Positions 22,906 to 54,271 of a DNA stretch of 64,000 nucleotides are shown here, piece by piece. Each line of letters begins with the position of its first letter. Positions within the stretch are counted from its first letter, which is position 1. The DNA comes from an uncultured Solirubrobacterales bacterium (GTDB lineage: Bacteria; Actinomycetota; Thermoleophilia; Solirubrobacterales; 70-9): assembly GCA_963695835.1 (NCBI GenBank), contig CAVOHR010000001.1:855259-919258 (forward strand), given 5' to 3'. Below the pieces are notes generated by a model. The model saw only the letters and a program-made list of their open reading frames with translations. It had not been told where the DNA came from and did no database searches. Both the position numbers and the translations under genes were made by a program.

Positions 22906-22948
22906 GGCGAGGTAGCTCAGTTGGTAGAGCACACGACTGAAAATCGTG
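22906..22948 (+). pseudogene. tRNA-Phe(GAA) 5' fragment (positions 1-43), attL-like junction
   Basis: ggcgagg-ta-gctc-agttggta-gagc-a-cacga-ctgaaaa-tcgtg, then tRNA structure is lost. Together with 54315-54344 it rebuilds a perfect cloverleaf. Confidence 0.85.
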
Positions 22949-31288: not shown

Positions 31289-31301
31289 CGGCTCGCCAGC
31301 C

Positions 31302-34799: not shown

Positions 34800-34806
34800 C
34801 CGACGC

Positions 34807-37386
34807 TCAACGTGCGATCTGGAACTCCCCGACGGCGAAACCCGCCGGGTCGCTGGCCGTGATCTCGATCGAGGCGACGGTCTGGGTGCCCGTCCCGTAG
34901 AAGCCGAAGTAGCGAGCCCCGGCGTATCCCTGGATGTCGACCGGCTCCGAGGAGGTGCCGTCCTGGGCGATGGCCTCGACGGTGAAGCTGTCGAAGGTGT
35001 TCGGCTCCGCGTAGAAGGCGAAGGCCTTGGTCCCTGCCGGGAGCGTCATCGTGACCGTGGACTCTGTTTCGGTGAAGTAGACGTCGCCGGTGTAGCCGTG
35101 GCTCCAGGTCGCCCAGCTGTTGGGCACGCGGCGATGGCTGAGATCGGGCGAGAACCCGATCGTCCCGGCCGGGTCGCTGACCCCGTCGACGGATTCCCCT
35201 TCGGGCCTGGAGTCCGGGCCGAACGCCGTCATCGTGTACGGGCCGAGCGTGGCGGGCGGCGGTCCGGTCCCGGGTGAGCCGTCAAAGGAGAGGTTGTCGC
35301 AGGCGACGGCGGCTTGGGCGTCGACGATCGGCAAACTGTTGGCCGGATAGCTGACCTGGGGTGAAAATTTGGTGGGGAACGGGAACGAGCTGCGACTCGC
35401 CACCATGCCGGTGTTCGTGCCGGCATCGCCGACGATGCAGCCAGCGGCCCGACTGGCGCCATAGTCGGGGTGTGTCGAGCGGACCAAGGCGGCGATCCCG
35501 GCCACCGCGGGAGCCGCCATCGACGTGCCCATGATCGGCCACCCGTCGGGCAGGTTCGCCGCGTAGGAACCGCAGTGAAAGAACTTGTAACAGGATTCGA
35601 CCGTGGTGCTCCAGATGCCGACCGTCCCGTCGCCGATCGGGCTGACGCTGACGCCACCGGGCGCCGCCACCTCCACGCCAGGGCCGAAGTCGGAGAAGCG
35701 CGCCAGCGAGCCATCCGAGTTGGTGGCCGCGACGGTGATCACGTTGCCGAGATCGGAGTTGAGGCCCATGCCGCTGGGAACGCCGGCCGCACAGTTGTTC
35801 CCTGCCGAGATCGTCCAGACGATGTCGCGGCCGATCGGGCCGCGGAAGAGCTCGCGGAAGGGGGTTTTGTATTCGGCAGCCTGCGCCAGCAGTTCGTTCT
35901 GCTGCGCGGTGGTCGCGCAACCGGCATGATTCCGCCCCAGCGACATGTTGATCACGCCGACGCCGGGCTGCTCGGCGACCGCAGTCGCCGCGGCGAGCCA
36001 CGACTTTTCCGAGGTGTCGGCGATGCCCGAGGTGGTTATCGGGCACCCCCAGGCGAAGCCGACCACGCCGATCCCGTTCGCCTTCGCACAGGCGATCCCG
36101 GCGACGTGGGTGGCATGGAGCGCCGGTCCACGCGAGCCGAGCTTCTTGGTGACGTTGAGATCCTCGTGGCCACCGAAGACCTGCCCTTCGTCCACGATCC
36201 CGACCCCTACATCAGAGCCCGTGGAGGTGTCCCAGGCCTGCGGCGCGCGCACCTGGGTGAAGGACCAGGTCGCCTGCGGACCGTCGTCGGACCAGTCGCC
36301 GGGTGGGACCGCGTCGGTCCCCACATCATCCACGGTGGAGTCACTGACCGCGGTGACACCGGAACGACCGAGCAACTCCTGCTTGATCTGTTCGAGGTCC
36401 TGCGGGGCTTCCCAGCGGAACTCGTAGACCCCGATCGCTTCGATCCCGCCCGACACCACCGCGCCGACTTCTTCCGCCGCCTCTTCGGCCTCGCTCCGAT
36501 CGCCCGGGGCGTCGGGCGTCCCGAAGGTGACCAGCAGCTCGTCGCGCAGCCGAACGCCGCCGGTCGGCAGGTCTTCCCCTTCGGCGATCCGATCCGGCGA
36601 GGCGGTGGTGAAGCTGTCGACCTCTCCGGGCGGCGCCGCCAGTTCACCGACCGTGAGCGGCACGCGCAGGACGAATTCGCGTTCGCATTCAGCGCCCGCA
36701 CAGCCGACGCCGGTGACCGTGAGCGTCTGCGCCTGCGGCGAGACCTCCGCATCGGCGGCGATCTGAACCCCTTCTTCGAAGGCGCTCGCGGTGACTCCAG
36801 CGGGCGCACCGCTGACGGTGCTCACGGCCGAGACCTGCGTCAGTGGTCCCGGCAGTTCGACCGGCACCGTCGAGCCCGGGGCGATTTCGAGAGCCCGAGC
36901 AGTGAGTTCCAGCGGCGGGGCCGGATCAGTTCGATCTTCGGCTGGCGCGGGGGTGGTCCCGGGACCCGGTCCAGGCCCCGGGCCGGAACCGTTCGATCGG
37001 GCGCCGATCGTCACCACTTTGCTCACCGAACGCTGCCGGTGCCGCTTTCCGGTTACCACGAGTTTCGCCGTGTAGGTGCCGGAACGAGTGTAGACGTGGC
37101 TCACCGGGTGCTTCAGGAGCGAGCGACCCCTCAGTACGGCGCTGCCGTCCCCGAAGTTCAGGCTGACCGACACGATCGGGCCGAATCTCTTGCCGGGCCG
37201 TGCCTTCGCCCGCAGGCCGATCGGCTCCCCTTCGGTCCCACCGCCCGGGCTCGTCAGGGAGAGCTGAAGCGACTTGCCCGATCGCGCGTGGCCACTGGCA
37301 TGCGCGCTACCTGCCGTCGCGGCAAATATGAGACAAACGAGACATGTGACCGTTAGACCTGCGCCGTGCCATTTCATTCTCGCCAC
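34807..37386 (-). CDS. Secreted subtilisin-like (S8) peptidase with N-terminal PKD-like domain
   Basis: Signal peptide. Catalytic triad motifs VGIVDEG, HATHVAGIA and GTSMAAPAVAGIAALV. PKD-like segment NFGDGS...YTRSGTYTAKLVVTG. Confidence 0.85.
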   Translation of the reverse strand: MARMKWHGAGLTVTCLVCLIFAATAGSAHASGHARSGKSLQLSLTSPGGGTEGEPIGLRAKARPGKRFGPIVSVSLNFGDGSAVLRGRSLLKHPVSHVYTRSGTYTAKLVVTGKRHRQRSVSKVVTIGARSNGSGPGPGPGPGTTPAPAEDRTDPAPPLELTARALEIAPGSTVPVELPGPLTQVSAVSTVSGAPAGVTASAFEEGVQIAADAEVSPQAQTLTVTGVGCAGAECEREFVLRVPLTVGELAAPPGEVDSFTTASPDRIAEGEDLPTGGVRLRDELLVTFGTPDAPGDRSEAEEAAEEVGAVVSGGIEAIGVYEFRWEAPQDLEQIKQELLGRSGVTAVSDSTVDDVGTDAVPPGDWSDDGPQATWSFTQVRAPQAWDTSTGSDVGVGIVDEGQVFGGHEDLNVTKKLGSRGPALHATHVAGIACAKANGIGVVGFAWGCPITTSGIADTSEKSWLAAATAVAEQPGVGVINMSLGRNHAGCATTAQQNELLAQAAEYKTPFRELFRGPIGRDIVWTISAGNNCAAGVPSGMGLNSDLGNVITVAATNSDGSLARFSDFGPGVEVAAPGGVSVSPIGDGTVGIWSTTVESCYKFFHCGSYAANLPDGWPIMGTSMAAPAVAGIAALVRSTHPDYGASRAAGCIVGDAGTNTGMVASRSSFPFPTKFSPQVSYPANSLPIVDAQAAVACDNLSFDGSPGTGPPPATLGPYTMTAFGPDSRPEGESVDGVSDPAGTIGFSPDLSHRRVPNSWATWSHGYTGDVYFTETESTVTMTLPAGTKAFAFYAEPNTFDSFTVEAIAQDGTSSEPVDIQGYAGARYFGFYGTGTQTVASIEITASDPAGFAVGEFQIAR

Positions 37387-37774
37387 TCCGTTAAGGCTCG
37401 CTGGTTGCAGGGCGCGACACCTTATTTAAATCGAGCGTTCCGCGGAGGCACCGTCGCCCAGCGACGGCGAATGGTAAGGAAGGGGTCACGAGTTCGAGTC
37501 TCGTCGGAGCTTTGGGGAAAGCGAGCACGAGGCGATCTGGATCGTGATCGCCGTGCGGAGGTACCGCGGCATTCAGCGGCAGGTGGCCAATGGAATGACC
37601 CACCGCACCTGCTCTCGCAACTGAGCGAGCGTCTCTCCGACCGTACGTGAGACGCCCGCCTTGGACGATTTGCGAGCGTCTGCTCATCCGACCACAAGTC
37701 GGCCGGGCCGCATCACCTCTGGGCGTGTGTCGCCCATCACGGTTCTCAGGGGGAGGCCACCCCGCTACGGGAAT

Positions 37775-38278
37775 GCCGTCGCGGTCCTCTTCATCGACCT
37801 CGACGAGTTCAAGCTCGTCAACGACACGCTGGGCCACGGCGCCGGCGACGCGCTGCTCGTCGCGGTCGCCGAGCGGCTGAGCGGAGTGGTGCGCGAGGCC
37901 GACACGCTGGGGCGCCTGGGGGGCGATGAGTTCGTCGTCCTCGCCGAGTGCCCGCCGGCAGAGAGCGGGCCGGGGGAGATCGCCGCGCGCGTCACCGGCG
38001 CGTTTACCGAGCCGTTCGCCGTGGAGCGCCTGCCCGAACCGCTGCGCCTCAGCGCCAGCATTGGGGTTGCGAGTTCCGCGGCGGGGTCCTCAGCAGAGCA
38101 ACTGCTCTGCGACGCCGACATCGCGATGTACAGCGCCAAGGGTCAGGTCGGAGGCTGCGCGCGGTATGAGCCGGGGATGGAGCAGGCGCTGGTGGGACGA
38201 AGCCTCCGCTGGCATGACGGGCCCGCGGGCAGCGCCGGAGACGGCGCTCAAGGCGTTGGCACCACCTCGACCCCGTAG
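37775..38278 (+). pseudogene. GGDEF diguanylate cyclase domain fragment (no sensor region and no start of the domain)
   Basis: VLFIDLDEFKLVNDTLGHGAGD...RLGGDEFVVL...DADIAMYSAK. Upstream sequence is non-protein-like. Confidence 0.7.
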
Positions 38279-38532
38279 CGTTGGGCAGCGGCAGCCAGCG
38301 TGGCCTCGTCCACTGGGTAGGTCGAGAGCACCGGTAGATCCTGCTCGCCAGCCGGGTTGAAAAGCGCGATGCCGACCAAGGTAGCGGCTGGGTCGTTTCG
38401 CAGCAGGTAGCGCACCCCGTCGAGGCCAGCCTCGTGGAACCAGGCGGCGAAACGTTGCGTGTGCGCATAGTCGGGGCTGGCGCTGAGCGAGAGGTCGATG
38501 CCGAAGCGCCGGCCCACGGGGCTCGTGCCCAC
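38248..38532 (-). pseudogene. Possible RES-domain toxin C-terminal fragment
   Basis: QRFAAWFHEAGLDGVRYLLRNDPAATLVGIALF resembles the RES-domain C-terminal strand pattern. The N-terminus is replaced by the IS fragment. Confidence 0.35.
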
Positions 38533-38752
38533 CGACTACTGGCTCTCCAACCTGCCCGCCGACACCGAGCCCGAGCGCTTGGCACGCCTCGCCCGCCTGC
38601 GCTGGAAGATCGAGCTCGACTACCGCCAGCTCAAGGGCGAGCTCGGGCTCGACCACTACGAGGGTCGGTCCTACCTTGGCTGGCACCACCACACCGCCCT
38701 GGTCAGCGCTGCCCACGGCTTCCTCCGACCCTGGAGCGCATTCACCCTTTAG
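38498..38752 (+). pseudogene. IS701-like DDE transposase, C-terminal fragment
   Basis: YWLSNLPADTEPERLARLARLRWKIELDYRQLKGELGLDHYEGRSYLGWHHHTALVSAAHGFL is a typical IS701/IS4-type C-terminus. Confidence 0.65.
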
Positions 38753-38789: not shown

Positions 38790-41700
38790 TTATACGAGAG
38801 CTAGATCGATCTCGACGCGGCGCTTGCCCATGCGTACTCTTAGCACTGCCACGTCCACCGGGTCACCCGCCTTGAGTCCGGCGATCTTGCCGCGATCCGC
38901 TGCGCTCATCTTGCGGCTGGAGACCAATCCGGTGAGGCCGTAGCGCAGGCGAACGAAGGCGCCGAGGTCGACCACGGCATCGATCGTCCCGCGCTCAGAC
39001 GCTCCCTCCGGATATGCTTCGCGCACCTGATTGAGAAGCGACGGCAGCTCGAAGTCGGGCATGCCCAGGTTGACTTCGAGCTTGCCCTTCTTGCTGCGTG
39101 CGATGCCGTTGATCCGGCCGCTCAGCTCCTGCCCGATCGAGAACAGTCGACGTGGGTCGAGCACCCGACCGCCACTCCCGATCGCCGTCTTGTGGACGAG
39201 GCCCACGGCATCGCCAAGATCAACGAAGACGCCGAACTCGACTACGTTGCCGACGGTTCCCTCGAAGGGCTCGCCCTCAGTGAGGCTGCGACGCGCCGCT
39301 TCCAGCTCAAGGTCTACACCCGGTATGGCGAGTTGAATCTGGCTGCGCCCGCGCTTTGCTTCAGTTGCCTTGACCTCGGCCTCGATCTCATCGCCGATGG
39401 CGAAGAAGCGCGACGGATCGGCGACGCCGAAGTCGCCGATTGAACTCTTGTGGAGCAGCGCTGTTCGCTTCACCTTGTCGAGCTGCACGATGACGCCGAA
39501 ATTCTGCACGTCGGTGACTGTTCCTGTCACCTGACTGCCCTCGGCGGGCAGCGCCGGCCGGGCGAGGTCGTTCGGGGCATCCAAGTGCTGCACCCTCGAC
39601 ACGCCGAGGGCGTTGGTCTGCCTCCAGACCTTGGCGATAATGCCGCGCCAGGTGTCGTCGTCGTAGAGAGCGAGCAGACTATCCCTGAGGACAAGGGACA
39701 TCAGCGGCGCTGCACGCAGCAGGGTCTCCTGACCCTGGATGAAGACCAAGCCGTCCCCGAGCAACTCGTCGAGTCCATCCGGAGCCTCCGCCACCTGTCG
39801 TTGGACCCACCCGTCGGAGCCGATTGAGGCAAGGCCGCCGCCGTTGCTTTCCTGCCACAGGTTGTAGGCCGTGCCTTGCCAGATCTGGGTGTCGGCAAGT
39901 GCGAGCAGCTGGTCGCGCAGCTCCTCGCTCATGTTGGGGCCCGCCAGCAGCTGGGCAGGCCGGGGTTCCTGGTAGGCCAGGGTGCTGGCATCGCAGAGTT
40001 CGGCCAGGCCGGTGGGGACACTGGTAATTCCCTGCTCGAACCAACCGTTGGCGTCGGGCGCCACGTCTCTCTCACCAGTCACCTTCCGCCATAGGCCGTC
40101 AATCAGACCCTGCCAGTAACTGCTGTCGTTCAGCTGGAGCAGCTGGTCGCGCAGCTCCTCGCTCAGCTCGGCCGTCGCCTTTAGGCGTCCGGGCTGTCCG
40201 GACTCCAGCTGCAAGAGGTCGTCGTCACAGAGTTCGGCGAGGCCGGGGGGAGCCTTCGAGATGGGCTTGATCACCCAGCCGTCGATTTTGCCGCGTCCTC
40301 CGTCGGCCTGGGTGCTGGAGTGCCACAGTTCGTTCACCGCTCGTCGCCAGGCTTTGCCGTCGCTTAGCGCCAGCAGCTTTTCGTGGGTCGCCTTGGACAT
40401 GTCGGGGCTGGCTCTGAGGATCGTGGGACTGCCCTGCTGGGCGGTCAGCCGCTCTCCATCGCATAGCTCCTCCAGCCCGTCGGGCAGATGGCTGAGGCGT
40501 CGCTCGATCCAGCCCGAGGCCTCCTCCGAGACCTCGGGCTTGAGCTGCACGAGCAGCGGCGTTCTCTCCGCTGTCCGAATCTTGCCGCGCTGGAGCGCCC
40601 TCATCGGCACGGTGAACTGGTGCACCAAACCGCGCGACTCGTCGCCATGCTCGAGACGGACCTCAACGGCACGGCCGTTGTCGCTCTTGCCGAACACGCG
40701 TGCGGGGTAGAAAGGAGCAGCCCCCTCCACGGGCGCGACCGACTCCGCCTCTTCGAGATGGCGTTGGAGCTCGGGCAAGCGGGAGGCCGCGATCGCGGCG
40801 TGGGCCTCGCGCAGATGCAGTGGCTTGACCTCAAGTGACGTCCCCGCTTCGAACTGACGCGTCGCCTCCTCATCGTCCCCCCTGAGCGTCAGCTCGTCGG
40901 CCGCCACGCAGACGTCGAGCCCGCTCTCGGTGTCCTGCGCGACTAGGAACGGTGCCCCCCAACCGGCGACGGGCTCAAGCGTGCGGGCACGACGCTCTTC
41001 TCCTGCCTCGATCGCCTCCGCCAAACCCGAGTCGAGCTCGCCGTCGCCCGGTTCGGCGACGGCGCGGACGACCCGGTCCTCACCGAGGCCTTCGTAGCCG
41101 ACCACCCTGAGCAGCAGATCGCCTTCGCTCGGGCTCTCGTCCCAGTCGAGACTCAGCTGCGGGCGGGACTCAAGGGACCCTGGCTCGAGGGGAAAGGGCG
41201 GTCCTTCATCAATCGCTCGATCGGCGCTGTCGCTCGTCTGCGTCCCTTTCTCCTTATCCCCACTCCCCTCGTTGGCCTCGAGTTCTTCTAGGTCTTGGAA
41301 CTGCGCCTCCATCTCGGGGTTGACGAGCGCGTCGCCTGGCTCTTGCAGCACCCCCACCAAATCGCCGGGACGCTGCTCCGCAGTCGGGGCACTCTCCATC
41401 GTTCCGGCCTCGGTCGGCTCGCCGTCGGGATCAAGCTCGGACTCTTCGACATCCTGTACCGCCAGCGGATCCGGCGGCGGCGGCGAGACCAGCTCGGCGG
41501 CCGTCATCGTCCCTTTGGCGTCGAAAGCGCAGCGGACCCGGGCTCCAACCGGCCAGTCGTCCTGGAAGATCAGGGTCTCCGCGGTTGTCGGACCGGGGAG
41601 ACCCCCGTCCGCCCCCCGCAGACGGTGCGAGACCTCAAGCGCAAGCTCGGTCCAGCTGCCGGCATTCGCAGCCCACTCGAATGAGGCAACCAGGCCGGAG

Positions 41701-44093
41701 AGAAGTCCTCCTCCCCCCGCTGCCCGTCGGCGCAGGGCGACGACGCGGTTGCACTGCTCGAGCCACGAGCAGTTCGCGAGCCGGTAGGTGACGTTGTCCG
41801 GCGATTCGGCTGCGACCCATCGGCTGCCGCTTCTGACGAAGGTGTAGTCGACCAGGGCGCGAGAAAGCACCGCTCGCACCCGCGGCGCTAGCTCCAGACG
41901 CATCGGCTCGGAGACCGGGGACTTGCGACCGGGAGAGAGGAATTCAAGCCGCTCACCACAGGTCGCGCTGATGCCGACGAGCAGGTCGTGGTTGACGCAG
42001 TTGGCGTTGGCCCAGGCCTCTTTGCGATCTCCAGCGCGCTCCCAGGCAGCGTAAAGCTTGAGTGCCAGGTCAAGCTCATCCCTGCACCCGAGCGTGATCG
42101 CTTCGTGGCAGCGCCTGGCGACATTCCGCGCGGTCGGCGTCCACCTCTCGTCGAAAAGCAGGACGCCTTTCGGCCCGATCAGGGTCGAGCCGCTGAGCAA
42201 CGTGATCGCCGTCACCGCCTCGACCGCGCAGGAGAGTTCGTCGGCTCCCGCGATCGCGCCCGCCTCGGCCGGGGAGCCGCTAAAGCCGAGCAGCTCGTTG
42301 CCCCAATCGGTGACGTCGCCCTCGGCGTCGAGCGCTCCTCGGCGTTCCAGCGCCGTGACCGAGCGTTTGAGCTCACCTTCGAAGGCGTCGCGGAACTGCG
42401 CCGCCTTCTCGTTCTTCTCGTTGACCCCCGGGCGTTTGAACGCGGCCGGCCAGTCGAAATCATTCGGGTTGTCGATCCCCGCCGCCTTCGCGGTAAGCAC
42501 GAGCGACTCAAGGTCGTCGCGGACCGCCTCTGGCGGGGTGTGATCGAGGAACTCCTCGAACTGGCCGCGGGTGTAGAGCGGGAATACCCAACCCGGCGCC
42601 TTCCTGCCGACCCGCCCCCAGCGCTGGCGCACCCCGTCCTTGCTGTGGGGAATGGCCAGGACGCTCTTGGAGGCCGTCGCCACATCCCACTTGCTCTGGT
42701 TGATTAGACCCGAGTCGACGACGTAGGTGACACCGTCGATCGTTAGCGAGGTCTCGGCAATGTTTGTCGAGATCACGATGCGTCGTTTGTCACCCTGCTG
42801 GCGTGCGCAGCGCGCGTCGCGCTGCTCGTCTTCGGGCGTGCTCCTCAACAGCCCGTAGACATCCCAACACTTCGCGATGCCCGCCTCGACTAGTTGCTTC
42901 TCGATCATGCTCACCGCCGCGTCGATTGCGGCTTTACCTGGAAGAAACCCCAGGACATCACCCCAATCGGTGCCTCTGGCAATTTTCACCGCTTGCTCGG
43001 CCACGAGCTGCGGCATCTGATCGCGCCAGCTGGCTACCGAGATCTCGCGTCCCTTCAGGACTCGAAGGGTGGCCAGGTGTTCTGCGATGTCTCGCAGTGG
43101 CTTCCCGCGGAACTCCTTGTCGTCCGCCCAGTCGGGATGATCGAGCTGGACGGGATCGTCGGGCCAGAGGGGTTTGCCGTACCCCCACTTCTTTTTGACT
43201 TTGATGTCGCCAAGCACCAGGACTTTCTTCTTGCCGCCGAAGAAATCACTGAAAAATTCGGGGTCGATTGTCGCGCTGAGCACGATCACTCGAAGGTTCG
43301 GGTGCTTTGGCAGCTCGGCTCGCAGCAGGGCGAGGATCACATCGATGTTCTTGCTGCGCTCGTGGGCCTCGTCGATGACGATGGCGCCGAACTTGTCGAG
43401 CGCTCCGTCGCGAAGCCAGTTGATGAGGCTGCCGTCGGTGACGAAAAGGAGCCGGCAGCCGGAGTCGAACACTGGTTTGCCCTTCACCCGGTAGCCGATG
43501 TCGCAGCCCGGTCCGACGCTGGGTGCGCCGTGAAGCTCTGTTGCGATGAAGGTCGCCACGTCGATGGTGGCGAAGACGCGAGGCTCGGTGACGATGATCG
43601 GTCCGCGGTCGGCCAAGTGCAAGGTGGCGTCATCCGGGGGAACCAGCAGACGGTAGGGCAGGAAGGTGGACTTGCCGCTGCCCGTGCCAGCGACGACGAT
43701 CGCAACCTGTTTCTTCTCCAAACCGGCCAGGAGCCGGTTCACATCGTTGTCGGTCAGACCGAAATCGAATCTGCTCAGATCGGATTTGACCGTGTCCCGC
43801 CTGTGCTCAGGCGGCAGCGGTCCGAGTCCGCCCAGGGGCCCGGTCGGGTTTTCCCTGTCCGCGACCTGTCCGACTGTCTCGAGGTCGATGTAGGGAACCG
43901 CCATCGAGCGCGCGTCCCGCGCGTGTCTCTGGCGGCAACGCGGGCAGCGGTCGGAGCGAGTGCCACCCCGCTCGACCACACCCTCGATCCAGGCGTCCGG
44001 ATAGACAAAGTCAGCTGGGTCGCCACGGCGACCGCAGTCCTTGCACTGCGCCTCCCAGCGGGTGGTGGTCGCGACGCCGCGGTCGGTGCTCAT
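38790..44093 (-). CDS. Giant Zn-ribbon / DEAH (RHA-like) helicase with four novel repeats and three C-terminal S1 domains
   Basis: CKDC...CPRC, AGTGSGKST, DEAHERS, SATI, TNIAETSLTIDG and QRWGRVGR. Four ~75-aa GW...P.GL.ELCD...LW repeats. Three S1 units (G..V.GTV..V..FG.FV.L......GL.H). The ATG overlaps the upstream stop (ATGA). Confidence 0.85.
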   Translation of the reverse strand: MSTDRGVATTTRWEAQCKDCGRRGDPADFVYPDAWIEGVVERGGTRSDRCPRCRQRHARDARSMAVPYIDLETVGQVADRENPTGPLGGLGPLPPEHRRDTVKSDLSRFDFGLTDNDVNRLLAGLEKKQVAIVVAGTGSGKSTFLPYRLLVPPDDATLHLADRGPIIVTEPRVFATIDVATFIATELHGAPSVGPGCDIGYRVKGKPVFDSGCRLLFVTDGSLINWLRDGALDKFGAIVIDEAHERSKNIDVILALLRAELPKHPNLRVIVLSATIDPEFFSDFFGGKKKVLVLGDIKVKKKWGYGKPLWPDDPVQLDHPDWADDKEFRGKPLRDIAEHLATLRVLKGREISVASWRDQMPQLVAEQAVKIARGTDWGDVLGFLPGKAAIDAAVSMIEKQLVEAGIAKCWDVYGLLRSTPEDEQRDARCARQQGDKRRIVISTNIAETSLTIDGVTYVVDSGLINQSKWDVATASKSVLAIPHSKDGVRQRWGRVGRKAPGWVFPLYTRGQFEEFLDHTPPEAVRDDLESLVLTAKAAGIDNPNDFDWPAAFKRPGVNEKNEKAAQFRDAFEGELKRSVTALERRGALDAEGDVTDWGNELLGFSGSPAEAGAIAGADELSCAVEAVTAITLLSGSTLIGPKGVLLFDERWTPTARNVARRCHEAITLGCRDELDLALKLYAAWERAGDRKEAWANANCVNHDLLVGISATCGERLEFLSPGRKSPVSEPMRLELAPRVRAVLSRALVDYTFVRSGSRWVAAESPDNVTYRLANCSWLEQCNRVVALRRRAAGGGGLLSGLVASFEWAANAGSWTELALEVSHRLRGADGGLPGPTTAETLIFQDDWPVGARVRCAFDAKGTMTAAELVSPPPPDPLAVQDVEESELDPDGEPTEAGTMESAPTAEQRPGDLVGVLQEPGDALVNPEMEAQFQDLEELEANEGSGDKEKGTQTSDSADRAIDEGPPFPLEPGSLESRPQLSLDWDESPSEGDLLLRVVGYEGLGEDRVVRAVAEPGDGELDSGLAEAIEAGEERRARTLEPVAGWGAPFLVAQDTESGLDVCVAADELTLRGDDEEATRQFEAGTSLEVKPLHLREAHAAIAASRLPELQRHLEEAESVAPVEGAAPFYPARVFGKSDNGRAVEVRLEHGDESRGLVHQFTVPMRALQRGKIRTAERTPLLVQLKPEVSEEASGWIERRLSHLPDGLEELCDGERLTAQQGSPTILRASPDMSKATHEKLLALSDGKAWRRAVNELWHSSTQADGGRGKIDGWVIKPISKAPPGLAELCDDDLLQLESGQPGRLKATAELSEELRDQLLQLNDSSYWQGLIDGLWRKVTGERDVAPDANGWFEQGITSVPTGLAELCDASTLAYQEPRPAQLLAGPNMSEELRDQLLALADTQIWQGTAYNLWQESNGGGLASIGSDGWVQRQVAEAPDGLDELLGDGLVFIQGQETLLRAAPLMSLVLRDSLLALYDDDTWRGIIAKVWRQTNALGVSRVQHLDAPNDLARPALPAEGSQVTGTVTDVQNFGVIVQLDKVKRTALLHKSSIGDFGVADPSRFFAIGDEIEAEVKATEAKRGRSQIQLAIPGVDLELEAARRSLTEGEPFEGTVGNVVEFGVFVDLGDAVGLVHKTAIGSGGRVLDPRRLFSIGQELSGRINGIARSKKGKLEVNLGMPDFELPSLLNQVREAYPEGASERGTIDAVVDLGAFVRLRYGLTGLVSSRKMSAADRGKIAGLKAGDPVDVAVLRVRMGKRRVEIDLALV

Positions 44094-45136
44094 CTGGCGA
44101 CCGCCCAGGCCGCTCCAGGCTCGAACCGGCCCGTTCTGCTGCGGTAGTGGTGGGGGCGCACGACCAGCGATCTCGGCCTTTTCTGCAGGTGGTGGGCCAC
44201 CGCCCGGTAGAAGCCGACCACGGCCGGCTCGAGGCCGGTCTGGAAAACCTCCAGCAGCAACGGCTCATCCGCTGTCGCCTCGCGCAGCTTGCGCCGGGAC
44301 AGCTCATACACGAGCAGATCGGTCTCGCCGGTCGGCCGCACCTGGCTGACCAGCCGGTTGCGAAGCCAGGCGGCGTCGACTTCCGGATCCATCTCCGGGT
44401 GGCGTATCGAGAGCAGAGCGACACGCAAGACCTGCATTCCCGCCAGCTCCTTCTGCTTCGGATCGTGCAGATCCAGGCAGGCCAGCGGGAAGGGCTTTGC
44501 CTCGGATCCGTCGCGGTAGACGATCCGTGCCGAGGTCTTCTTGTCTGCTGCGGCGCGGTCGGCGTAGCGACGCAGTCCCTTGGTTAGGGCGAAATTGTTG
44601 ACGCCGCTTGGCACCGCGACCTCCGTTTCGCGATTGACGATCGCCGCCAGCTGACCTTCCCAGAGAGCCTGTTGGGGATCGCGGTGGCGCGAGCTGCGGC
44701 CGGGCTGCCACGCCGAGGCAGGTGGCGCGGCCTTCGAGCGCCGCGGGGGCGGGGGCGGCTCGACCCGACCGACCTCAAGCGGATCCCTGATTTCAATCGC
44801 GATGCCGCCGCCGTCGAGATGCTTGCGCACGTCCTTCGCGTCGGCGAAGTCCGGCGCCAGGTCAGTCGCCTCGTCGATCCAGGGATGGCACGCGCCCGTG
44901 CTCGTCGCTGCCGCGGGGTGCTTCACCGTGGCGGCTTTTCCCTTGGTGGCAAGCGCCATCGCCGCCTGTTCGAGCTGATTGCAGATGGTGTCGTAGCGCA
45001 GGGCCTCGCTGCGGTCGCCTGGGGCCGCCTTCAACTGACGACGGGCGGCCAGCTTGGCATCCCCCGCCAGCGCTTCGAGCTTGCCCGCCCATTGCTTCGG
45101 CGTGAGCAGCACGAAGGTGGCGATCTCGCGGGTCAT
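44090..45136 (-). CDS. Hypothetical protein (348 aa), operon member
   Basis: Protein-like composition with ATGA overlaps at both ends (45133-45136 and 44090-44093). No motif recognised. Confidence 0.6.
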   Translation of the reverse strand: MTREIATFVLLTPKQWAGKLEALAGDAKLAARRQLKAAPGDRSEALRYDTICNQLEQAAMALATKGKAATVKHPAAATSTGACHPWIDEATDLAPDFADAKDVRKHLDGGGIAIEIRDPLEVGRVEPPPPPRRSKAAPPASAWQPGRSSRHRDPQQALWEGQLAAIVNRETEVAVPSGVNNFALTKGLRRYADRAAADKKTSARIVYRDGSEAKPFPLACLDLHDPKQKELAGMQVLRVALLSIRHPEMDPEVDAAWLRNRLVSQVRPTGETDLLVYELSRRKLREATADEPLLLEVFQTGLEPAVVGFYRAVAHHLQKRPRSLVVRPHHYRSRTGRFEPGAAWAVAR

Positions 45137-46677
45137 TCGCGCCCCACCCTTGAGGCGGTAAGGCGAGTCTCGATGGCCCGATCGAGCGCACTGACTCGAT
45201 CGGGCAGCACTAGCTGCGCGACGCTCTTGGGACGTGCTCCTTTGACCCTGGGGGCTGAGTGCGGCTCGAGGGTCGCCGCCACCGCATCGTGCTCGCGTGC
45301 GAGCTCGCGCGCCAGATCCCACTGCGCGCAGCTGGGCAGGTCGCGAGCGACCACGATCAGCGGCTGGGCGGGCCCAATCTCAAGGGCCCCAGAGACCGGT
45401 TGCCAGGGGAGGCGGCCTCCCGCCACACCCTCGAAGCGAACCGCCCCGCTGTCCTCAAGCACCTGCCAGGAGATCGTTCGGGCGGCGTCCTCGACGACCT
45501 CCACTCGGCGCTCGTTTTTGCCCCCTTCCGGGTTGTCATCGCTTGAGGCAGGTGTGATGGGCTCTTCCCTCTGGGCCAGCCGCCGAAGTAGCATTCCCAG
45601 CATGGCGGCGCTGCGGCAGAGTGATAGCTCCGCCCGCCGTGCGGCGCGATCAAGCGGATCGACCCCGCCGCGCAGGATTGAGCCCGAGCGGGGCGAGCAG
45701 GCGAGCAGGAAGTCGAGCTCGGCTGGATCCCAGATTCCGGACAGCAGCACGTAGCAAGCGCGCTCGGCACTGAGCAGTCCAGCGTCGATACGCTGCTGCA
45801 GCCTCGCTCGTAGCTCGTCGGGCAGAGGGGTTACGGCGAAGAGCAGTTCGCGAGCTTGGGCGGGCCCGATCGAGGCCGGGTCGTCGGTCCCCAGCTCGAT
45901 GCCGTGCGTTCGCGCGAACTGCCGCAGGCTGGCCGGAACCGCCTGCTCGAGATGCTGCTCGAAGCGAATCTCCATCGTGCCGCCGGAGCGGAAGGCCTCG
46001 GCAAGCGTGAGCGCCGCCAGTGCCCGGTTTCCCTCGTGCGTCGCCACGTGGGGCACCTGGCAGGTCTGCCAGACCTCGACCGCCAAACCGTCGAATTTCG
46101 CCTCATGCCGGTAGGCGGCGAGGCCGATGATGACGTTCTGGGAGGCGATACGCACCGGCCGACATTCGTGGGGGCGCGGCAGGCGCTCACCATGTGACTC
46201 CTCGAACTTGTCGGCAGTCTCGATCATGCGCTGCAAGCCGGCCTCACATGTGGCCTCCTCGGTGGCGATCGTCTCAAGGTAGAGCTGGGCGTCGGTGTCG
46301 AGCGGTGCCCGCTGGTTGCCGGGTGGGACGTCGGTCAGGTGCCAGCGCACGACCTCGCCGACGTTGGGTGCGGGCTCCTCTCCTTGGCGCTCGCATACCA
46401 CGCAGGCAAGCGAGCTGTGGTCGACCGCAGCGATCGGTAGCAGGTCGAGGTCGGCCCGTTGCGCACTAAGCAGCCGCATGGAGCTGAGGGCGCCAAGCAG
46501 GCTCTGCGACTTCGCCCGCTTCGGCGCGAGCAGGAAGGTGCTCTCCTCCAAACCCGGCCGCGCCTCCATCAGGAGCGCGGGAAGTTGCTCTGGAATTCTC
46601 AGGCCGGAGAGGTCCTTGAGTTCGTTCAGTTGATTCTCGGCCGCTGCTGGAAGACTTGATGCCCCCGATACGGCCAT
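45133..46677 (-). CDS. Hypothetical protein (514 aa), operon member
   Basis: Protein-like composition. GAGG lies 4 nt before the ATG, 10 bp after the nuclease stop. No motif recognised. Confidence 0.6.
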   Translation of the reverse strand: MAVSGASSLPAAAENQLNELKDLSGLRIPEQLPALLMEARPGLEESTFLLAPKRAKSQSLLGALSSMRLLSAQRADLDLLPIAAVDHSSLACVVCERQGEEPAPNVGEVVRWHLTDVPPGNQRAPLDTDAQLYLETIATEEATCEAGLQRMIETADKFEESHGERLPRPHECRPVRIASQNVIIGLAAYRHEAKFDGLAVEVWQTCQVPHVATHEGNRALAALTLAEAFRSGGTMEIRFEQHLEQAVPASLRQFARTHGIELGTDDPASIGPAQARELLFAVTPLPDELRARLQQRIDAGLLSAERACYVLLSGIWDPAELDFLLACSPRSGSILRGGVDPLDRAARRAELSLCRSAAMLGMLLRRLAQREEPITPASSDDNPEGGKNERRVEVVEDAARTISWQVLEDSGAVRFEGVAGGRLPWQPVSGALEIGPAQPLIVVARDLPSCAQWDLARELAREHDAVAATLEPHSAPRVKGARPKSVAQLVLPDRVSALDRAIETRLTASRVGRE

Positions 46678-46687
46678 GACCTCTGAC

Positions 46688-47347
46688 TCAGGTCGAAGGG
46701 TTGTTGTCGAAGTGCTGGAGTTCGAATCCGGTGTCCGGATGATCTAGGCCGTAGTCGAACCCCGCCGGTCGGTCCGAGTTGTCGTCGTAGACGAGGTGCA
46801 CCGCGACAGCGGTGCCCGGGTTTGCCGCAGCAATCCTCTCCATCTCGCGCCACTCCTTGCCGAGATTGAGGGCGGCGAGCTGGGGGACGATGTTGATGTC
46901 CATACCGCCGCCCATGCTGTGAGCGAAGACGTGGCCCTTGTGATCACCCTTTGGCGCCGAGGGATGGCCGCTCTGCCGGCTGTTGTCGCGTGACCCCTCC
47001 GGCGTAGTCGATTTGCCTACGCCGCAAACCAGCCGACCGGCAGCTACATCGAAGGTGTAGGTATAGGTGCCCAGCTGTACGTCGACCAGGGTGTTGCCGG
47101 TCTGCTCCTGATATTCGGCGGCCCAATTCCCGGCCAGCTCCGAGGTCAAGGCTGCGCCGTCCGCATTCGTGCTGGGGGAAGCGGTCTGGGTGCTACCGCG
47201 GCTGGACTTGTCGCTGCGGCGCTGAGTGGCACGTGGGGGGACCGAGCGTACGGTCGCCGTCCGCACCGGAGTGGGGGGCGAACTCGGAGCGGCACTGGCG
47301 GCGGCGGTGTGCGCATCGCTGGATGAGGTGGTGTTTCCGCAGGCCAT
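46688..47347 (-). CDS. Non-specific beta-beta-alpha-Me nuclease (Endonuclease_NS_2 / EssD-like domain) with low-complexity N-terminus
   Basis: GDHKGHVFAHSMGGGMDINIVPQLAALNLGKEWREME fits the GH..GG..N..PQ..N..E signature. The first ~70 aa are S/T/A/P-rich and there is no signal peptide. Confidence 0.6.
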   Translation of the reverse strand: MACGNTTSSSDAHTAAASAAPSSPPTPVRTATVRSVPPRATQRRSDKSSRGSTQTASPSTNADGAALTSELAGNWAAEYQEQTGNTLVDVQLGTYTYTFDVAAGRLVCGVGKSTTPEGSRDNSRQSGHPSAPKGDHKGHVFAHSMGGGMDINIVPQLAALNLGKEWREMERIAAANPGTAVAVHLVYDDNSDRPAGFDYGLDHPDTGFELQHFDNNPST

Positions 47348-47782: not shown

Positions 47783-47856
47783 GGCGAGGTAGCTCAGTCA
47801 GGTAGAGCACGCGACTGAAAATCGCGGTGTCGGCGGTTCGATTCCGCCCCTCGCCA
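47783..47856 (+). tRNA. tRNA-Phe (GAA), intact, carried inside the island
   Basis: Acceptor GGCGAGG/CCTCGCC, D arm GCTC/GAGC, anticodon arm CGCGA-CTGAAAA-TCGCG, T arm GGCGG-TTCGATT-CCGCC, discriminator A. CCA is not encoded. Confidence 0.9.
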
Positions 47857-48057
47857 CTCTGAGGTCTTCACCTTTGACCTCCACCTATCTTCACGTTTGA
47901 ACCGGACGAACCGCGATTCGCGGTGGCGTCCGATGTCCATCGACTCCTCCGGGAGCGGCCATTCAACTTCCCCGCCCACGGCCACCGTTTCTCCCCACCG
48001 GTGGCCATCGGTTCTCCCCACGCTTTCTCCCTCGGCGACCGTCCCGGCGAGGCGAAG

Positions 48058-49560
48058 TCAGGTCGGCGCGCTTGCCGCGCCGATCAGGTCGTCCGCGGTC
48101 CGGCGCCGCCTGCGCCGCTTGGGCGCCAGCCCTTCGGCGGCACGCCGCTCATCCTCGGCCTGGCGAGCCGCGAAGGCGTCGGCGACGCGCAGGTTGCGGG
48201 CGACGAAGACGCTGGCGGCGAACAGCGCGATCGGCGCCAGACCCGTCAACCGGCACCAGCCCTTTGAGATGTCGTTGGAGGCCGGGTCCTTGACCGTGGC
48301 GTAGGCGCGCTCGGCGGCGGAGCGCCGCGCGTAGGAGCGGCGGTGCTCCGCAGAGGGGTAGTCGTGTTTCTGTGCGGTCTTGGCGTTGACCGAGGCAGGC
48401 ACCGTGATCGTGCGCTGGGCGCAGCAGGTAGGCGGGTGCTCGGGCGGGGAGATGACCTCCGGACGGGTGTGGCCGAGCTGCATCGACTCAGGCCGCAAGG
48501 GGCAGCGCAGCTTGCCCTGGGCGGCGGGGCAGCCGACGCGGTGGTAGCCGTCTGCGTCATAGCCCGCGAGCGGCGCCAGCTTGTGCTTGGCGAGCTCTGC
48601 GGCCTTGCGGTCGTGGGCGGCAGTCTCGGCCTCCGTAGCGCCGCGGGCGAGCGGTCCCAGTTCCAGCAGCGTGGTCGGCGTCGCCGGGCAGTAGAGCGCC
48701 CCGTTGGCGAGGGTTGCTCCCATGTGGGTTCCCTTCGGCCCACGGTCATGGGGATGCAGGTCCTGGACGAGATTTGCCCCCAGGCGCCGCAGCGGCAGCG
48801 CCCACGTCTCCGCCACCCGGTGGGCATAGCCCGAATCGGCGAGGACGTCGCCGACCTCGATCCCGGCGGCGGCCATCCGCTCCAGCACCGGCACGAGCGC
48901 CGGCGGCGGGTCGACCCCGCAGCTCGTGAGCCCGATGCGGCGCACCAGCTCCGCGACGGCGGGGCCGCGCTCCTCCTTGACGGCCGTGACGACCTGCAGG
49001 TAGTAGCCGTAGAAGGCCTCGTCGCGCTCGCCGGGCGAGTTGCCGCGCCGGTGTCCCCAGGTGGCCTCGGGGTCAGCGCAGCGCTCGCCGCCCTTCGGCG
49101 GTGGGCAGGAGAACGTCTCCAGGTCGGTCCAGTCGACGGCGTAGGAGCTCGTCTCGGGCTTCCCGCAGAGCTCGACGCTCGCCTCCAGCAGGGCGTCGAG
49201 GATCTCCGAGAGCTCCTCGCAGGGCTCCCCGTCGGGCTCGGCCTTGGCCAGTACCCTCGCCACGAGCCCGAAGGTGCGCTCCACCTGGCGGTAGGTGAGC
49301 CGGTGGGGGCCGTCCTTCCACTCGGCGATCACCCCGAGCCGCCTCTGATCTGCCTGGGGCAGCGCGCAGAGCGCCTCGTGCACCCGGCTCAGGTGCGCGG
49401 GGCGCCCGTCGACGGCGACCAAGAGCATCCCCACGAGCAGCGTGCGCACCGAGAGCTGGCGCCGCCGCGCCCCGACCGGCAGCATCGCCTCGATCCGCGG
49501 GGCGATGCCCGAGCGCTCGACGACTCCCTCCAATCGCTCAAGCTTCGCCTCAGCCTCCAT
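48058..49560 (-). CDS. DDE transposase (IS4/IS5-like fold), copy 1
   Basis: AVDWTDLETF, VLADSGYA and YARRSAAERAYATVKD...RLTGL are consistent with a D-D-E triad and an IS5/IS1182-style C-terminal tail. Family not assigned. Confidence 0.7.
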   Translation of the reverse strand: MEAEAKLERLEGVVERSGIAPRIEAMLPVGARRRQLSVRTLLVGMLLVAVDGRPAHLSRVHEALCALPQADQRRLGVIAEWKDGPHRLTYRQVERTFGLVARVLAKAEPDGEPCEELSEILDALLEASVELCGKPETSSYAVDWTDLETFSCPPPKGGERCADPEATWGHRRGNSPGERDEAFYGYYLQVVTAVKEERGPAVAELVRRIGLTSCGVDPPPALVPVLERMAAAGIEVGDVLADSGYAHRVAETWALPLRRLGANLVQDLHPHDRGPKGTHMGATLANGALYCPATPTTLLELGPLARGATEAETAAHDRKAAELAKHKLAPLAGYDADGYHRVGCPAAQGKLRCPLRPESMQLGHTRPEVISPPEHPPTCCAQRTITVPASVNAKTAQKHDYPSAEHRRSYARRSAAERAYATVKDPASNDISKGWCRLTGLAPIALFAASVFVARNLRVADAFAARQAEDERRAAEGLAPKRRRRRRTADDLIGAASAPT

Positions 49561-50461
49561 GGCCTCCTCCGAGCAATGCGACGGCGGTCTCCTCCTCGGT
49601 CTCGGGCAGCTCGGCCACCAAGTCGCCGAGCCGCTGGGAGCAGCGCAGCCCGGCCGCGTCCATGAACGCCCGCAGGCCGATCAGCTCGGCGCACTCGCAA
49701 AGCCAGCTCGCCCGCAGCCGCCCGGCCTCCAGGCGCGGCAGCGAGGCGTCCTTGCCAAGCGCGGCGTTCAAGGCGTCGCTGAGGTTGCGCCGCCCCGAGC
49801 TCTCGCCGCCGAGCAGGTAGCCCCGCCCGGCGAAGCGGGCGGCTTCCTCCAGGGGCGAGTGGAAGTGGGCCAGCACAGGCACCGCCCGCTCCCTGCGCCC
49901 CGAGACGCAGACCACGAGCCCCCCCGAGCGCCGGATGACGTCGCGCCCGCGCACGTGGCGAAGCTCGGCCCCGATCAGTCCCGCCCCCGCCCCCAGACAG
50001 ACAAGCGCGGTGGCGCGCATCCGCCGTGCCTCGGTCGGCTGCGCAGCGGCGAGGCGCAGGAAGCCCTCGATCTCCGCCTCCCCGTAGGGGGACTTGGCGC
50101 GCTCGCGCGGCAGCGGCGCCAGCTGCGGGGAGGGATGAGCCCGATGGACACGGGCCAGCGCCCGCAGGTTGGTGCGCAGGGTGCGTCGCGTCGCCGCGGA
50201 GACCGCCGGGCAACCCGTGAGGACGAAGCGCTCGATCGTCGCCTCCGCCAGCAGCGCCTCGGCGGAGAGCTCCATCCCCACCGACTTGCCGAAGGCGGCC
50301 AGCCGCCCGGCGGCGTAGAGCAGCGCCTTGGCCCGTTCGCGCCGGCGCGGAGCAGCCCGCCTCACCGCCGCACGGGCGAAGGCCCCCGCCTCGGGGGAGA
50401 GCGAGGCGGGGGCGTAGGCGGCGATCGCCGCTGCTGCGAGGTCGCCCTCTCGGGGACTCAT
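49550..50461 (-). CDS. Tyrosine-recombinase-like protein, apparently degenerate active site, copy 1
   Basis: Integrase-fold pattern RATALVCLGAGAGLIGAELRHVRGRDV...VSGRRERAVPV...GRLRASW. Box I Arg, the first His and the terminal Tyr are not evident. Overlaps the transposase start by 11 nt. Confidence 0.55.
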   Translation of the reverse strand: MSPREGDLAAAAIAAYAPASLSPEAGAFARAAVRRAAPRRRERAKALLYAAGRLAAFGKSVGMELSAEALLAEATIERFVLTGCPAVSAATRRTLRTNLRALARVHRAHPSPQLAPLPRERAKSPYGEAEIEGFLRLAAAQPTEARRMRATALVCLGAGAGLIGAELRHVRGRDVIRRSGGLVVCVSGRRERAVPVLAHFHSPLEEAARFAGRGYLLGGESSGRRNLSDALNAALGKDASLPRLEAGRLRASWLCECAELIGLRAFMDAAGLRCSQRLGDLVAELPETEEETAVALLGGGHGG

Positions 50462-50517
50462 GGTATCCGACAGTAGAATTACTATCGGACAGACCGACGT
50501 AGGATCGCAAGTCACCC

Positions 50518-50883
50518 ATGAACGAGAGCCCCGAGGCCCGCCTGCGCGCGCTCGCCGCCGAGCTCGCCGAGATCGACTTCGCCCTGCCGGGGACGATCAA
50601 CGTGGCGATGAACCGCTGCGGCAAGCCCAACTGCGCCTGCAAGGCCGACCCGCCCAAGCTGCACGGCCCCTACGTCACCTGGACGCGCAAGGTCGAGGGC
50701 AAGACCGTCACCCGCCGCCTCTCAGCCGAGCAGCTGGAGCGCTATCGCCCTTGGTTTGAGAACCGCAGGCGCCTGCGCGCGCTCACTGCCGAGCTCGAGG
50801 CGCTCTCCCTCGAGGTCGCCGAGCAGGCCGAGGGCTGGGCGCCTGCCGAGCCGCGCCGTCGCGGCGAACGACGCGGCCGCTGA
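50518..50883 (+). CDS. Small Cys-motif protein (DUF6788-like), copy 1
   Basis: GTINVAMNRCGKPNCACKADPPKLHGPYVTWTRKVEGKTVTRRL. Divergent from the recombinase-like gene across a 56-bp spacer that holds an imperfect palindrome. Confidence 0.6.
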   Translation: MNESPEARLRALAAELAEIDFALPGTINVAMNRCGKPNCACKADPPKLHGPYVTWTRKVEGKTVTRRLSAEQLERYRPWFENRRRLRALTAELEALSLEVAEQAEGWAPAEPRRRGERRGR

Positions 50884-51187
50884 GCACGCGCCGGTGTGGC
50901 CCCGCGCCGCTTAACGTGTGGTCGCTGCGAAGACTGTCCGCGGAATCCGCATCGGTATGCGGCTGGTGGCAAACGTGAAGACCTCACTCTGAGGTCTTCA
51001 CCTTTGACCTCCACCTATCTTCACGTTTGAACCGGACGAACCGCGATTCGCGGTGGCGTCCGATGTCCATCGACTCCTCCGGGAGCGGCCATTCAACTTC
51101 CCCGCCCACGGCCACCGTTTCTCCCCACCGGTGGCCATCGGTTCTCCCCACGCTTTCTCCCTCGGCGACCGTCCCGGCGAGGCGAAG

Positions 51188-53591: not shown

Positions 53592-53647
53592 GGTATCCGA
53601 CAGTAGAATTACTATCGGACAGACCGACGTAGGATCGCAAGTCACCC

Positions 53648-54013: not shown

Positions 54014-54271
54014 GCACGCGCCGGTGTGGCCCCGCGCCGCTTAACGTGTGGTCGCTGCGAAGACTGTCCGCGGAATCCGCATCGGTATGCGGCTGGTGGC
54101 AAACGTGAAGACCTCACTCTTTTTTCGAAGTGGCAATGGATCCGTTTCTCATAGCCACAATCCACCCGAAACCACCCGGAAGAACAGGAATCCAGGCCGT
54201 CTGCGGGTTGCAAGGATGGCTCGGTGACGATCCCGATTTTCCGCATTCCAAAGCGGTTTGCGGCCGATCCT

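Follow-up and report, generated by a model that had tools for sequence, protein, structure and literature searches.

The stretch of DNA analysed here (the window) comprises 64,000 nt of contig CAVOHR010000001.1 from an uncultured Solirubrobacterales bacterium (assembly GCA_963695835.1, positions 855,259 to 919,258), and all coordinates below refer to the window. Four intact and closely coupled minus-strand open reading frames (ORFs) fill positions 38790-47347, as an earlier note made from the sequence had reported. We are confident that these four genes form a single functional system, and we consider it a horizontally spread, so far undescribed conflict system that is probably directed against phages. 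Gene products (lengths in amino acids, aa) are as follows.

46688..47347, minus strand: gene 1, plausible effector, 219 aa (ORF, translation and Pfam PF13930)
45133..46677, minus strand: gene 2, core protein, 514 aa (ORF; family without a Pfam match)
44090..45136, minus strand: gene 3, predicted SAVED-like protein, 348 aa (ORF from ATG; AlphaFold2 and Foldseek)
38790..44093, minus strand: gene 4, predicted helicase, 1,767 aa (ORF; Pfam DEAD, Helicase_C and three S1 domains)

Genes 2 and 3 and genes 3 and 4 are joined by ATGA start/stop overlaps at 45133-45136 and 44090-44093, both as previously noted. The 10-bp spacer between genes 1 and 2 (gtcaGAGGtc) and its GAGG are also present, but the GAGG ends 2 nt from the second ATG rather than the 4 nt that had been given. 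The longest ORF in the frame of gene 3 opens at a GTG at 45322, and its 348 aa are counted from the ATG. The ATG starts of genes 1 and 3 gain support from homologue alignments, in which a short leader encoded at the start of gene 1 is kept throughout the loci and the 348-aa family hardly varies at M1. A consensus scan for an operon promoter and terminator was uninformative, and the only match in an Rfam scan was a tRNA.

A pattern scan of 185,579 species genomes identified 37 loci (L001-L037), a rare and patchy distribution that includes Streptomyces, Nocardia, Rhodococcus, Micromonospora, Solirubrobacterales, Acidimicrobiia, Gemmatimonadales, Acidobacteriota, Rhodobacterales, Brevundimonas and Geminicoccaceae. 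With six metagenome contigs and one conjugative Paenarthrobacter plasmid these give 44 loci besides the window, 45 in total, and they fall in the Actinomycetota, Gemmatimonadota, Acidobacteriota, Alphaproteobacteria and Planctomycetota (at least five phyla by our count). No copy was found in the phage collections INPHARED or IMG/VR. The genes for the 514-aa protein, the 348-aa protein and the helicase core occur in one order and on one strand in all 37 genome loci with enough DNA (tblastn), and the same collinearity is seen in the six metagenome contigs and the plasmid; stops and starts of the core genes usually overlap. The earlier note had proposed looking for co-occurrence of all four families in other genomes, and the three core genes are indeed collinear wherever the contig is long enough, but the nuclease family itself is not conserved, only the leader-bearing slot that it occupies. 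Outside the closest clade the EssD-type nuclease turns up at only a few loci; one close relative, L038, has the same four genes, with a 514-aa protein 71% identical to that of the window. An alternative put forward in the same note, that the nuclease and the 514-aa gene are a decayed toxin/immunity pair merely sitting upstream of the other two, is refuted by the strict synteny of the 514-aa, 348-aa and helicase genes.

Two of the copies have damaged core genes. At L036 (10001-11309), in a metagenome-assembled genome, the 514-aa homologue is frameshifted and the effector, an Endonuclease_NS_2 nuclease, is divergent; the frameshift reflects either a pseudogene or an assembly error. At L032 (11452-16140), and in the protein P0276, an in-frame deletion fuses the 348-aa protein (to about residue 313) with the helicase from about residue 359, and RecA1 is gone. 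We considered P0276 as a Rosetta-stone fusion and rejected this, given that RecA1 is missing and that L032 has the identical junction, and we regard it as a deletion derivative.

Gene 1 consists of a leader beginning M-A-C-G-N-T, a linker rich in Ala, Ser, Pro and Thr, and a beta-beta-alpha-Me nuclease domain of the Endonuclease_NS_2 type, read as a DNA/RNA nuclease.

47297..47347, minus strand: MAC leader, codons 1-17 of gene 1, MACGNTTSSSDAHTAAA in the window (consensus MACGNNxVSRxxLxSxP)
46691..47158, minus strand: nuclease domain of gene 1, approximately residues 64-219 (L036 homologue 65% identical over residues 64-215; Pfam match at residues 120-198)

The Pfam profile Endonuclea_NS_2 (PF13930) matches residues 120-198 at 38.7 bits (gathering cut-off 27, E = 1.4e-9), and the motif DHKGH...N...N..E is found, with DHKGH at residues 135-139. 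The assignment to the Endonuclease_NS_2/EssD type made earlier is borne out by this match above the gathering score. The nuclease is plausibly the effector of the system, and we use that term for the gene in this position at all loci.

The leader is the constant feature of the effector slot. We searched for it with a relaxed regular expression anchored at start codons, in ORFs of at least 50 aa in all six frames of the 45 sequences (866 kb), and obtained 47 matches. Each locus contributes exactly one match in the gene beside that for the 514-aa protein, 45 in all, of which 33 run in the same direction and 12 are divergent, so that the slot encodes a leader protein (M-A-C-G-N-N/T or M-A-C-G/A-K-P-P) at 45 of 45 loci. 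Most Actinomycetota have M-A-C-G-N-N-H-V-S-R-x-Y-L-S-S-Q-P and the Gram-negative members have M-A-C-G/A-K-P-P-D-P; the window has M-A-C-G-N-T-T-S-S-S. An alignment of 33 effectors shows no variation at Met1 and Cys3 and very little at Ala2, and with Ala, Gly or Ser at position 2 the general form is Met-(Ala/Gly/Ser)-Cys. The Ala, Cys and Gly codons of the leader take all synonymous forms across the loci and the DNA upstream is unrelated, and the constraint therefore lies on the peptide and not on an RNA element.

Behind the leader, a low-complexity linker leads to domains that are unrelated from locus to locus, such that variable C-terminal toxin domains sit on a constant N-terminal part as in polymorphic toxins. 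The domain is Endonuclea_NS_2 in the window, L038, L036 and L001, EndoU_bacteria in L028 (Pfam, E = 2e-12), and a weak match to restriction-endonuclease-type Pfam families in L031 and L012. The L025 effector has an Endonuclease_NS_2-like motif and that of L024 is putatively ADP-ribosyltransferase-like, both on a by-eye reading. Two further families are described at the level of motifs: one of about 365 aa with an E-x-D...D-F-K motif that is PD-(D/E)xK-like, and one of about 135-175 aa with an invariant H-x-H within the motif 'HVHVIHD'. No trafficking domain is among the 25 most frequent Pfam families listed for 33 effectors.

Public annotation deals poorly with this gene, which gene callers often truncate or skip. 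In the window genome it is called as P0372, with 153 aa instead of 219 aa; it is uncalled in L041 (8360-8821) and L043 (9566-9994), and is missing from the PLSDB and ENA gene tables. Metagenome homologues close to the window nuclease begin MACGNT or VACGNT when called full length. The system is consequently invisible to routine annotation and the leader is hidden.

Two further observations concern genes of this kind outside the simple arrangement. L014 has a second leader-like ORF of 50 aa (20082-20234, minus strand; MACANPPEPER...) about 10 kb from the system, which may be the remnant of a swapped effector cassette. In three Streptomyces loci (L002:7869-8270, L006:7758-8237 and L007:7758-8237) a 'HVHVIHD' member without a MAC leader lies about 1.5 kb upstream, and the leader gene beside the 514-aa gene codes for a different, divergent 290-aa protein (MGCAKPGG...).

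Gene 4 is the largest of the four, and its predicted product has the following parts.

43935..44045, minus strand: CxxC...CxxC zinc ribbon, residues 17-53 (motif reading, CxxC at 17 and 50)
41994..43724, minus strand: DEAH/RHA core, approximately residues 124-700 (tblastn; the only part of the helicase conserved at all loci)
39564..40499, minus strand: four tandem 78-aa repeats (P-x-G-L-x-E-L...W), approximately residues 1199-1510, clade-specific
38793..39563, minus strand: three S1 RNA-binding domains, approximately residues 1511-1767 (Pfam S1 in three stretches, E = 9e-29; rpsA-like matches)

Motifs I (GTGSGKS, 136), II (DEAH, 241-244), III (SAT, 273), V (TNIAE, 443) and VI (QRWGRVGR, 490) are all present, and NCBIfam reports partial matches to HrpA and HrpB (1e-55 and 1e-52), with HrpB model positions 199-447 aligning to residues 366-638, beyond RecA2. 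From this complete motif set and the HrpA/HrpB similarity we predict a DEAH/RHA-type superfamily 2 (SF2) helicase. The equivalog cut-offs are missed (188 against 722.75 bits for HrpA TIGR01967 and 179 against 546.15 for HrpB TIGR01970), and by this measure gene 4 is not an orthologue of either. It shares with them the RecA1/RecA2 core, the following HrpB-like region and complete DEAH motifs, but differs in its N-terminal zinc ribbon, a unique middle of about 500 aa and variable C-terminal repeats with S1, KH or Jag_N domains, as well as in a sporadic distribution tied to mobile elements.

Conservation of the helicase between loci is limited to approximately residues 1-700 (tblastn, residues 5-700 at 41-47% identity in most loci and 35% in L026), and the C-terminal halves differ but always carry RNA-binding modules. 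Three to five S1 domains, with or without Jag_N, are found in the helicases of the window, L008, L038, L043 and L044, and KH domains in those of L001, L005 and L042. The 78-aa repeats have an exact period (starts at 1204, 1282, 1360 and 1438), and a tblastn search of the other loci gave one weak match, in L025. The ribbon, DEAH core, four repeats and three S1 domains listed in the earlier note are thus all found, but the repeats and the triple S1 array are clade-specific and other helicases carry KH or Jag_N instead. The best argument for RNA as the ligand is that modules binding single-stranded RNA (S1, KH, Jag_N) have been acquired repeatedly and independently. DEAH/RHA enzymes are the class that eukaryotes use for RNA surveillance.

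The 348-aa product of gene 3 had been described as having no recognisable motif, and there is indeed no match at the sequence level: neither gene 2 nor gene 3 matches Pfam, NCBIfam or PADLOC, Pfam SAVED is not matched by 30 members of the 348-aa family even at E up to 10, and a profile search of PDB sequences with this family gave no match. Its predicted fold, however, is SAVED-like. The AlphaFold2 model has a mean predicted local distance difference test score (pLDDT) of 90 and a predicted template modelling score of 0.63, the latter suggesting that the packing between lobes is uncertain. In a Foldseek search of the PDB the top 39 matches are all SAVED proteins (probability up to 1.0, E from 4e-4, TM-scores of about 0.3), led by SAVED-CHAT (8tl0), Cap5 (8fm1) and Cap4 (7yib and 6wam), with 3TM-SAVED and viral SAVED proteins further down. 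We read it, at the level of the modelled fold, as a stand-alone SAVED-like, two-lobed CARF-type protein. Among 1.84 billion representatives the family accounts for 565 clusters (50% identity), and because 501 of these are found at E up to 1e-10 its edge is sharp and the family isolated. Gene clustering around L001-L037 revealed no further conserved family, and none of the 25 most frequent neighbour Pfam families listed is a nucleotide cyclase. The protein may bind a ligand made elsewhere, may recognise RNA-derived oligonucleotides, or may be an oligomerisation scaffold.

Gene 2 has at least 137 homologues, all 'hypothetical', with 48 invariant alignment columns; homologues of the 514-aa and 348-aa proteins together number in the hundreds, and those named by their sources are 'hypothetical' or 'uncharacterized' save for one stray UniRef cluster name. 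A profile search of PDB sequences with the 514-aa family gave no match, and Foldseek searches of the AlphaFold2 model (pLDDT 79) against the PDB and BFVD found no significant structural neighbour. The only coherent structural signal is to the SUKH fold of Knr4/SMI1, over about 160 residues (probability 0.77-0.85, E of about 0.3-0.6). Pfam SMI1_KNR4 matches two of 25 family members at E = 0.14 in a scan allowing E up to 10, and longer homologues carry a faint, additional N-terminal SUKH_5/SMI1_KNR4 domain. Where the earlier note saw no motif, the Pfam, NCBIfam and PADLOC searches agree with it, but the protein has a putative, weakly SUKH/Knr4-like N-terminal domain, followed by a highly conserved segment (approximately residues 167-250) and an alpha/beta C-terminal domain. 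SUKH proteins are classic immunity partners of nuclease toxins (PMC3113570). The conserved segment contains the invariant residues P167, R173, P174, Q180, N181, H210, E215 and G232-E236; residues 169-214 are the lowest-confidence part of the model, and may be an interaction or catalytic segment that folds only within a complex. Scattered low-probability Foldseek matches to restriction-endonuclease-like proteins and Bax1 were not counted as evidence, and the idea that 'GGTME' is a degenerate GGDEF palm motif was dropped when the fold search gave it no support.

Comparison with named systems leaves the four genes without a counterpart. PADLOC (PADLOC-DB v2) reported only Cas3 models for the four proteins (E = 0.007-0.04, with zero significant stretches), and no component of Hachiman, Druantia, DISARM, Zorya, Gabija, Nhi, Hna, Shango or the other systems in that database was matched. 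Searches of the open-access literature found no description of the gene set or of the leader, systems from after 2023 being checked by literature only. These searches, with those of Pfam and NCBIfam, agree with the earlier statement that no named system has this gene set. Lamassu and Avs-type systems combine a constant sensing core with unrelated effector domains, and there the effector is fused to the core protein; the window effector is a separate polypeptide, with only the short N-terminal leader in common between loci. The SAVED effectors of CBASS (cyclic-oligonucleotide-based antiphage signalling systems) and type III CRISPR (Cap4, Cap5, SAVED-CHAT and CalpL-type proteins) are the only structures that match the 348-aa model at high Foldseek probability, but the 348-aa protein stands alone, with no fused effector, no cyclase in the operon and no similarity to Pfam SAVED.

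Among systems that join a helicase to a nuclease, Hachiman shares the proposed logic: its HamA nuclease is held in check by the HamB helicase until damage is sensed (PMC12278908), an SF2 helicase sensor restraining and then freeing a nuclease as we propose here. Hachiman has two genes and senses DNA, and PADLOC found no HamA or HamB match among the window proteins; the window system has four components, RNA-binding modules and swappable leader-bearing effectors. Mokosh also pairs an RNA helicase with a nuclease, and has been hypothesised to recognise phage RNA (10.1101/2022.05.11.491447), but its helicase is an Upf1-like SF1 enzyme (COG1112) and its nuclease a PLD enzyme, where the window has an SF2 DEAH/RHA helicase and a beta-beta-alpha-Me nuclease. 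The PADLOC models MkoA, MkoB and MkoC do not match the four window proteins, and MkoA matches neighbouring genes at two loci. Homology to the Mokosh helicase was considered and dropped, as the latter is COG1112/Upf1-like and not HrpA-like COG1643 (10.1101/2022.05.11.491447).

The surroundings of the system are rich in mobile and defence genes. A bulk scan of the nearest genes at 38 loci found Phage_integrase (four), type IV secretion system (T4SS) coupling proteins (two), rve (two) and N6_Mtase (two), and L038 adjoins an N6_Mtase/Eco57I-type gene. Defence neighbours include a complete Wadjet JetABD, two MkoA genes, PD-T4-6, MADS genes, and type I and II restriction-modification methyltransferases.

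On balance we lean towards an immune system directed against phages or other mobile elements that works roughly as follows. The three constant proteins would assemble into a complex, to which the leader peptide would dock the effector and keep it inactive; this holding role would fall most obviously to the SUKH-like domain of the 514-aa protein. The helicase would survey RNA through its S1 or KH modules, and once foreign RNA or an RNA-containing intermediate is engaged, ATP-driven remodelling would free or activate the tethered toxin. The toxin would then degrade nucleic acids and the infected cell would stop, an abortive infection. The SAVED-like protein may oligomerise or bind an oligonucleotide ligand. 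What may be new in kind in this helicase-plus-toxin conflict system is the leader-addressed, separately encoded and interchangeable effector. The strongest form of this proposal, in which the Met-Ala-Cys-Gly-Asn leader is a universal effector adaptor of about 17 residues, possibly modified or processed at Cys3, that plugs any toxin into an RNA-sensing helicase/SAVED-like/SUKH-like machine, is tentative and rather doubtful; were it true, it would define an unrecognised immune family with trans-acting, leader-addressed exchange of effectors and a SAVED-like protein without a dedicated cyclase.

A number of points weigh against an immune role of this kind. No component matches the hidden Markov model of a validated defence system, and with no conserved cyclase in or near the operon the usual SAVED logic is left without a signal source. 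The SAVED-like assignment comes from one AlphaFold2 model and Foldseek TM-scores of about 0.3, and the SUKH-like assignment of the 514-aa N-terminal domain is weak (Foldseek E of about 0.3, Pfam E = 0.14). Neither the small 'HVHVIHD' nor the 365-aa effector family has a match in Pfam or in profile searches of the PDB, and no fold is assigned to them. The leader could be a site of modification or processing rather than a docking peptide. Finally, the defence-neighbour signal is anecdotal and not a tested enrichment, and some loci, such as L042, lie amid ordinary metabolic genes.

Several other explanations share parts of the evidence. The genes could be an addiction or stabilisation module of mobile elements, akin to toxin-antitoxin (TA) systems, with the constant proteins neutralising a MAC-tagged toxin and the 514-aa protein serving as a generic antitoxin by way of the leader; once the element is lost the toxin would be released, and control or processing of the transcript would fall to the helicase. 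One copy is carried on a conjugative plasmid, others lie beside integrases and T4SS coupling proteins, the window copy is in a tRNA-bounded island with TA genes nearby, and the effector is a toxin domain next to a SUKH-like protein. Mobile carriage is, however, common to many defence systems and so does not discriminate, an ATP-dependent helicase of 1,500-2,000 aa with RNA-binding arrays and a SAVED-like protein far exceed the needs of any known TA module, and the divergent toxin genes of 12 loci are unusual for TA coupling; we think such a module unlikely. An inter-bacterial polymorphic toxin, with the MAC leader as an export or trafficking signal, secreted C-terminal domains and the SUKH-like 514-aa protein as immunity, would explain several features that are hallmarks of those systems, namely a constant N-terminus with variable toxins drawn from a common pool (Endonuclease_NS_2, EndoU) and a SUKH-like neighbour (PMC3482391, PMC3113570). 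The constant part is here only about 17 residues long, though, and the effectors lack signal peptides, transmembrane segments and known trafficking domains, nor are there conserved secretion genes nearby. The 514-aa protein moreover does not co-vary with the toxin but stays 40-50% identical while the toxin fold changes, unlike a cognate immunity protein that binds its toxin, and the strictly linked RNA helicase and SAVED-like protein would be without a role. This makes the explanation very unlikely.

In a signalling system, the toxin would be triggered by a cyclic or linear oligonucleotide recognised by the SAVED-like protein, and the helicase would come in at a later stage, perhaps supplying the nuclease with substrate. 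The ligand would be supplied in trans (by CBASS, type III CRISPR or a phage) or be made by the 514-aa protein or the helicase through an activity so far unrecognised, and both the SAVED-like predicted fold and the enzymatic look of the 514-aa segment 167-250 (H210, E215, G232-E236), which models poorly, are in keeping with this. But the loci have no conserved CD-NTase, Cas10, mCpol or GGDEF-type cyclase, Foldseek found no nucleotidyltransferase match for the 514-aa model, and the SAVED similarity is at fold level only, such that we hold this reading to be improbable too. That the genes are instead a housekeeping RNA-processing complex, an HrpA/HrpB-like helicase and its cofactors lying by chance beside a nuclease, is barely credible: the partial HrpA and HrpB matches (1e-55, 1e-52) and the resemblance of the S1 arrays to ribosomal protein S1 are set against scores far under the equivalog cut-offs (188 against 723 bits and 179 against 546), occurrence in 37 of 185,579 species genomes scattered across phyla, copies on plasmids and islands, obligatory linkage to toxin domains, and decayed copies (the L032 in-frame deletion and the L036 frameshift).

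If an immune function were confirmed, the family would be a defence widespread in soil Actinomycetota and found also in Proteobacteria, Acidobacteriota, Gemmatimonadota and Planctomycetota. Four of its features would be unusual for bacterial immunity: the likely RNA sensor, a DEAH/RHA helicase bearing S1/KH arrays; a cyclase-free SAVED-like protein; a SUKH-like core; and separate effectors with a short shared leader containing an invariant Cys. The leader would provide a simple sequence handle with which to catalogue effectors, and a testable idea of how one sensing complex uses many toxins.

In the window the operon forms the right-hand end of an island of about 24.8 kb that lies between copies of tRNA-Phe and has a lower G+C content. 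The boundaries and associated features are as follows.

22906..22946, plus strand: remnant of the 5' two-thirds of tRNA-Phe, left island boundary (blastn 93% over 42 nt, alignment and G+C profile)
38498-38752: DDE transposase fragment, abutting the helicase stop
47783..47857, plus strand: intact tRNA-Phe (GAA), right island boundary (ARAGORN, Rfam)
approximately 54303-54344: remnant of the 3' part of tRNA-Phe, after two tandem 3,130-bp units

Farther right, at 57-63 kb, are a gene for a MazE antitoxin and a weak match to AbiEi. The earlier description of the setting is accurate as to the tRNA-Phe island, a transposase fragment and toxin-antitoxin genes (MazE and the weak AbiEi match), but the 'integrase debris' it mentioned was not found. 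Both tRNA-Phe remnants carry AAAATCGTG where the intact gene reads AAAATCGCG, which points to at least two insertions having split the original tRNA and to an intact gene built from element-borne sequence.

The tandem units to the right of the intact tRNA (47855-50984 and 50985-54114) are 99.97% identical, lie at the 3' end of tRNA-Phe and are flanked by a 33-nt repeat; each encodes proteins of 500 aa and 321 aa without a Pfam match and a 121-aa DUF6788 protein, and they may be a small integrative element in tandem. Within the island, positions 28982-37386 (minus strand) encode proteins of 814 aa (no Pfam match), 771 aa (IPT/TIG) and 859 aa (S8 subtilase and PKD), and the island also contains an RNase H gene (28059-28544) and a short GGDEF gene (37661-38278).

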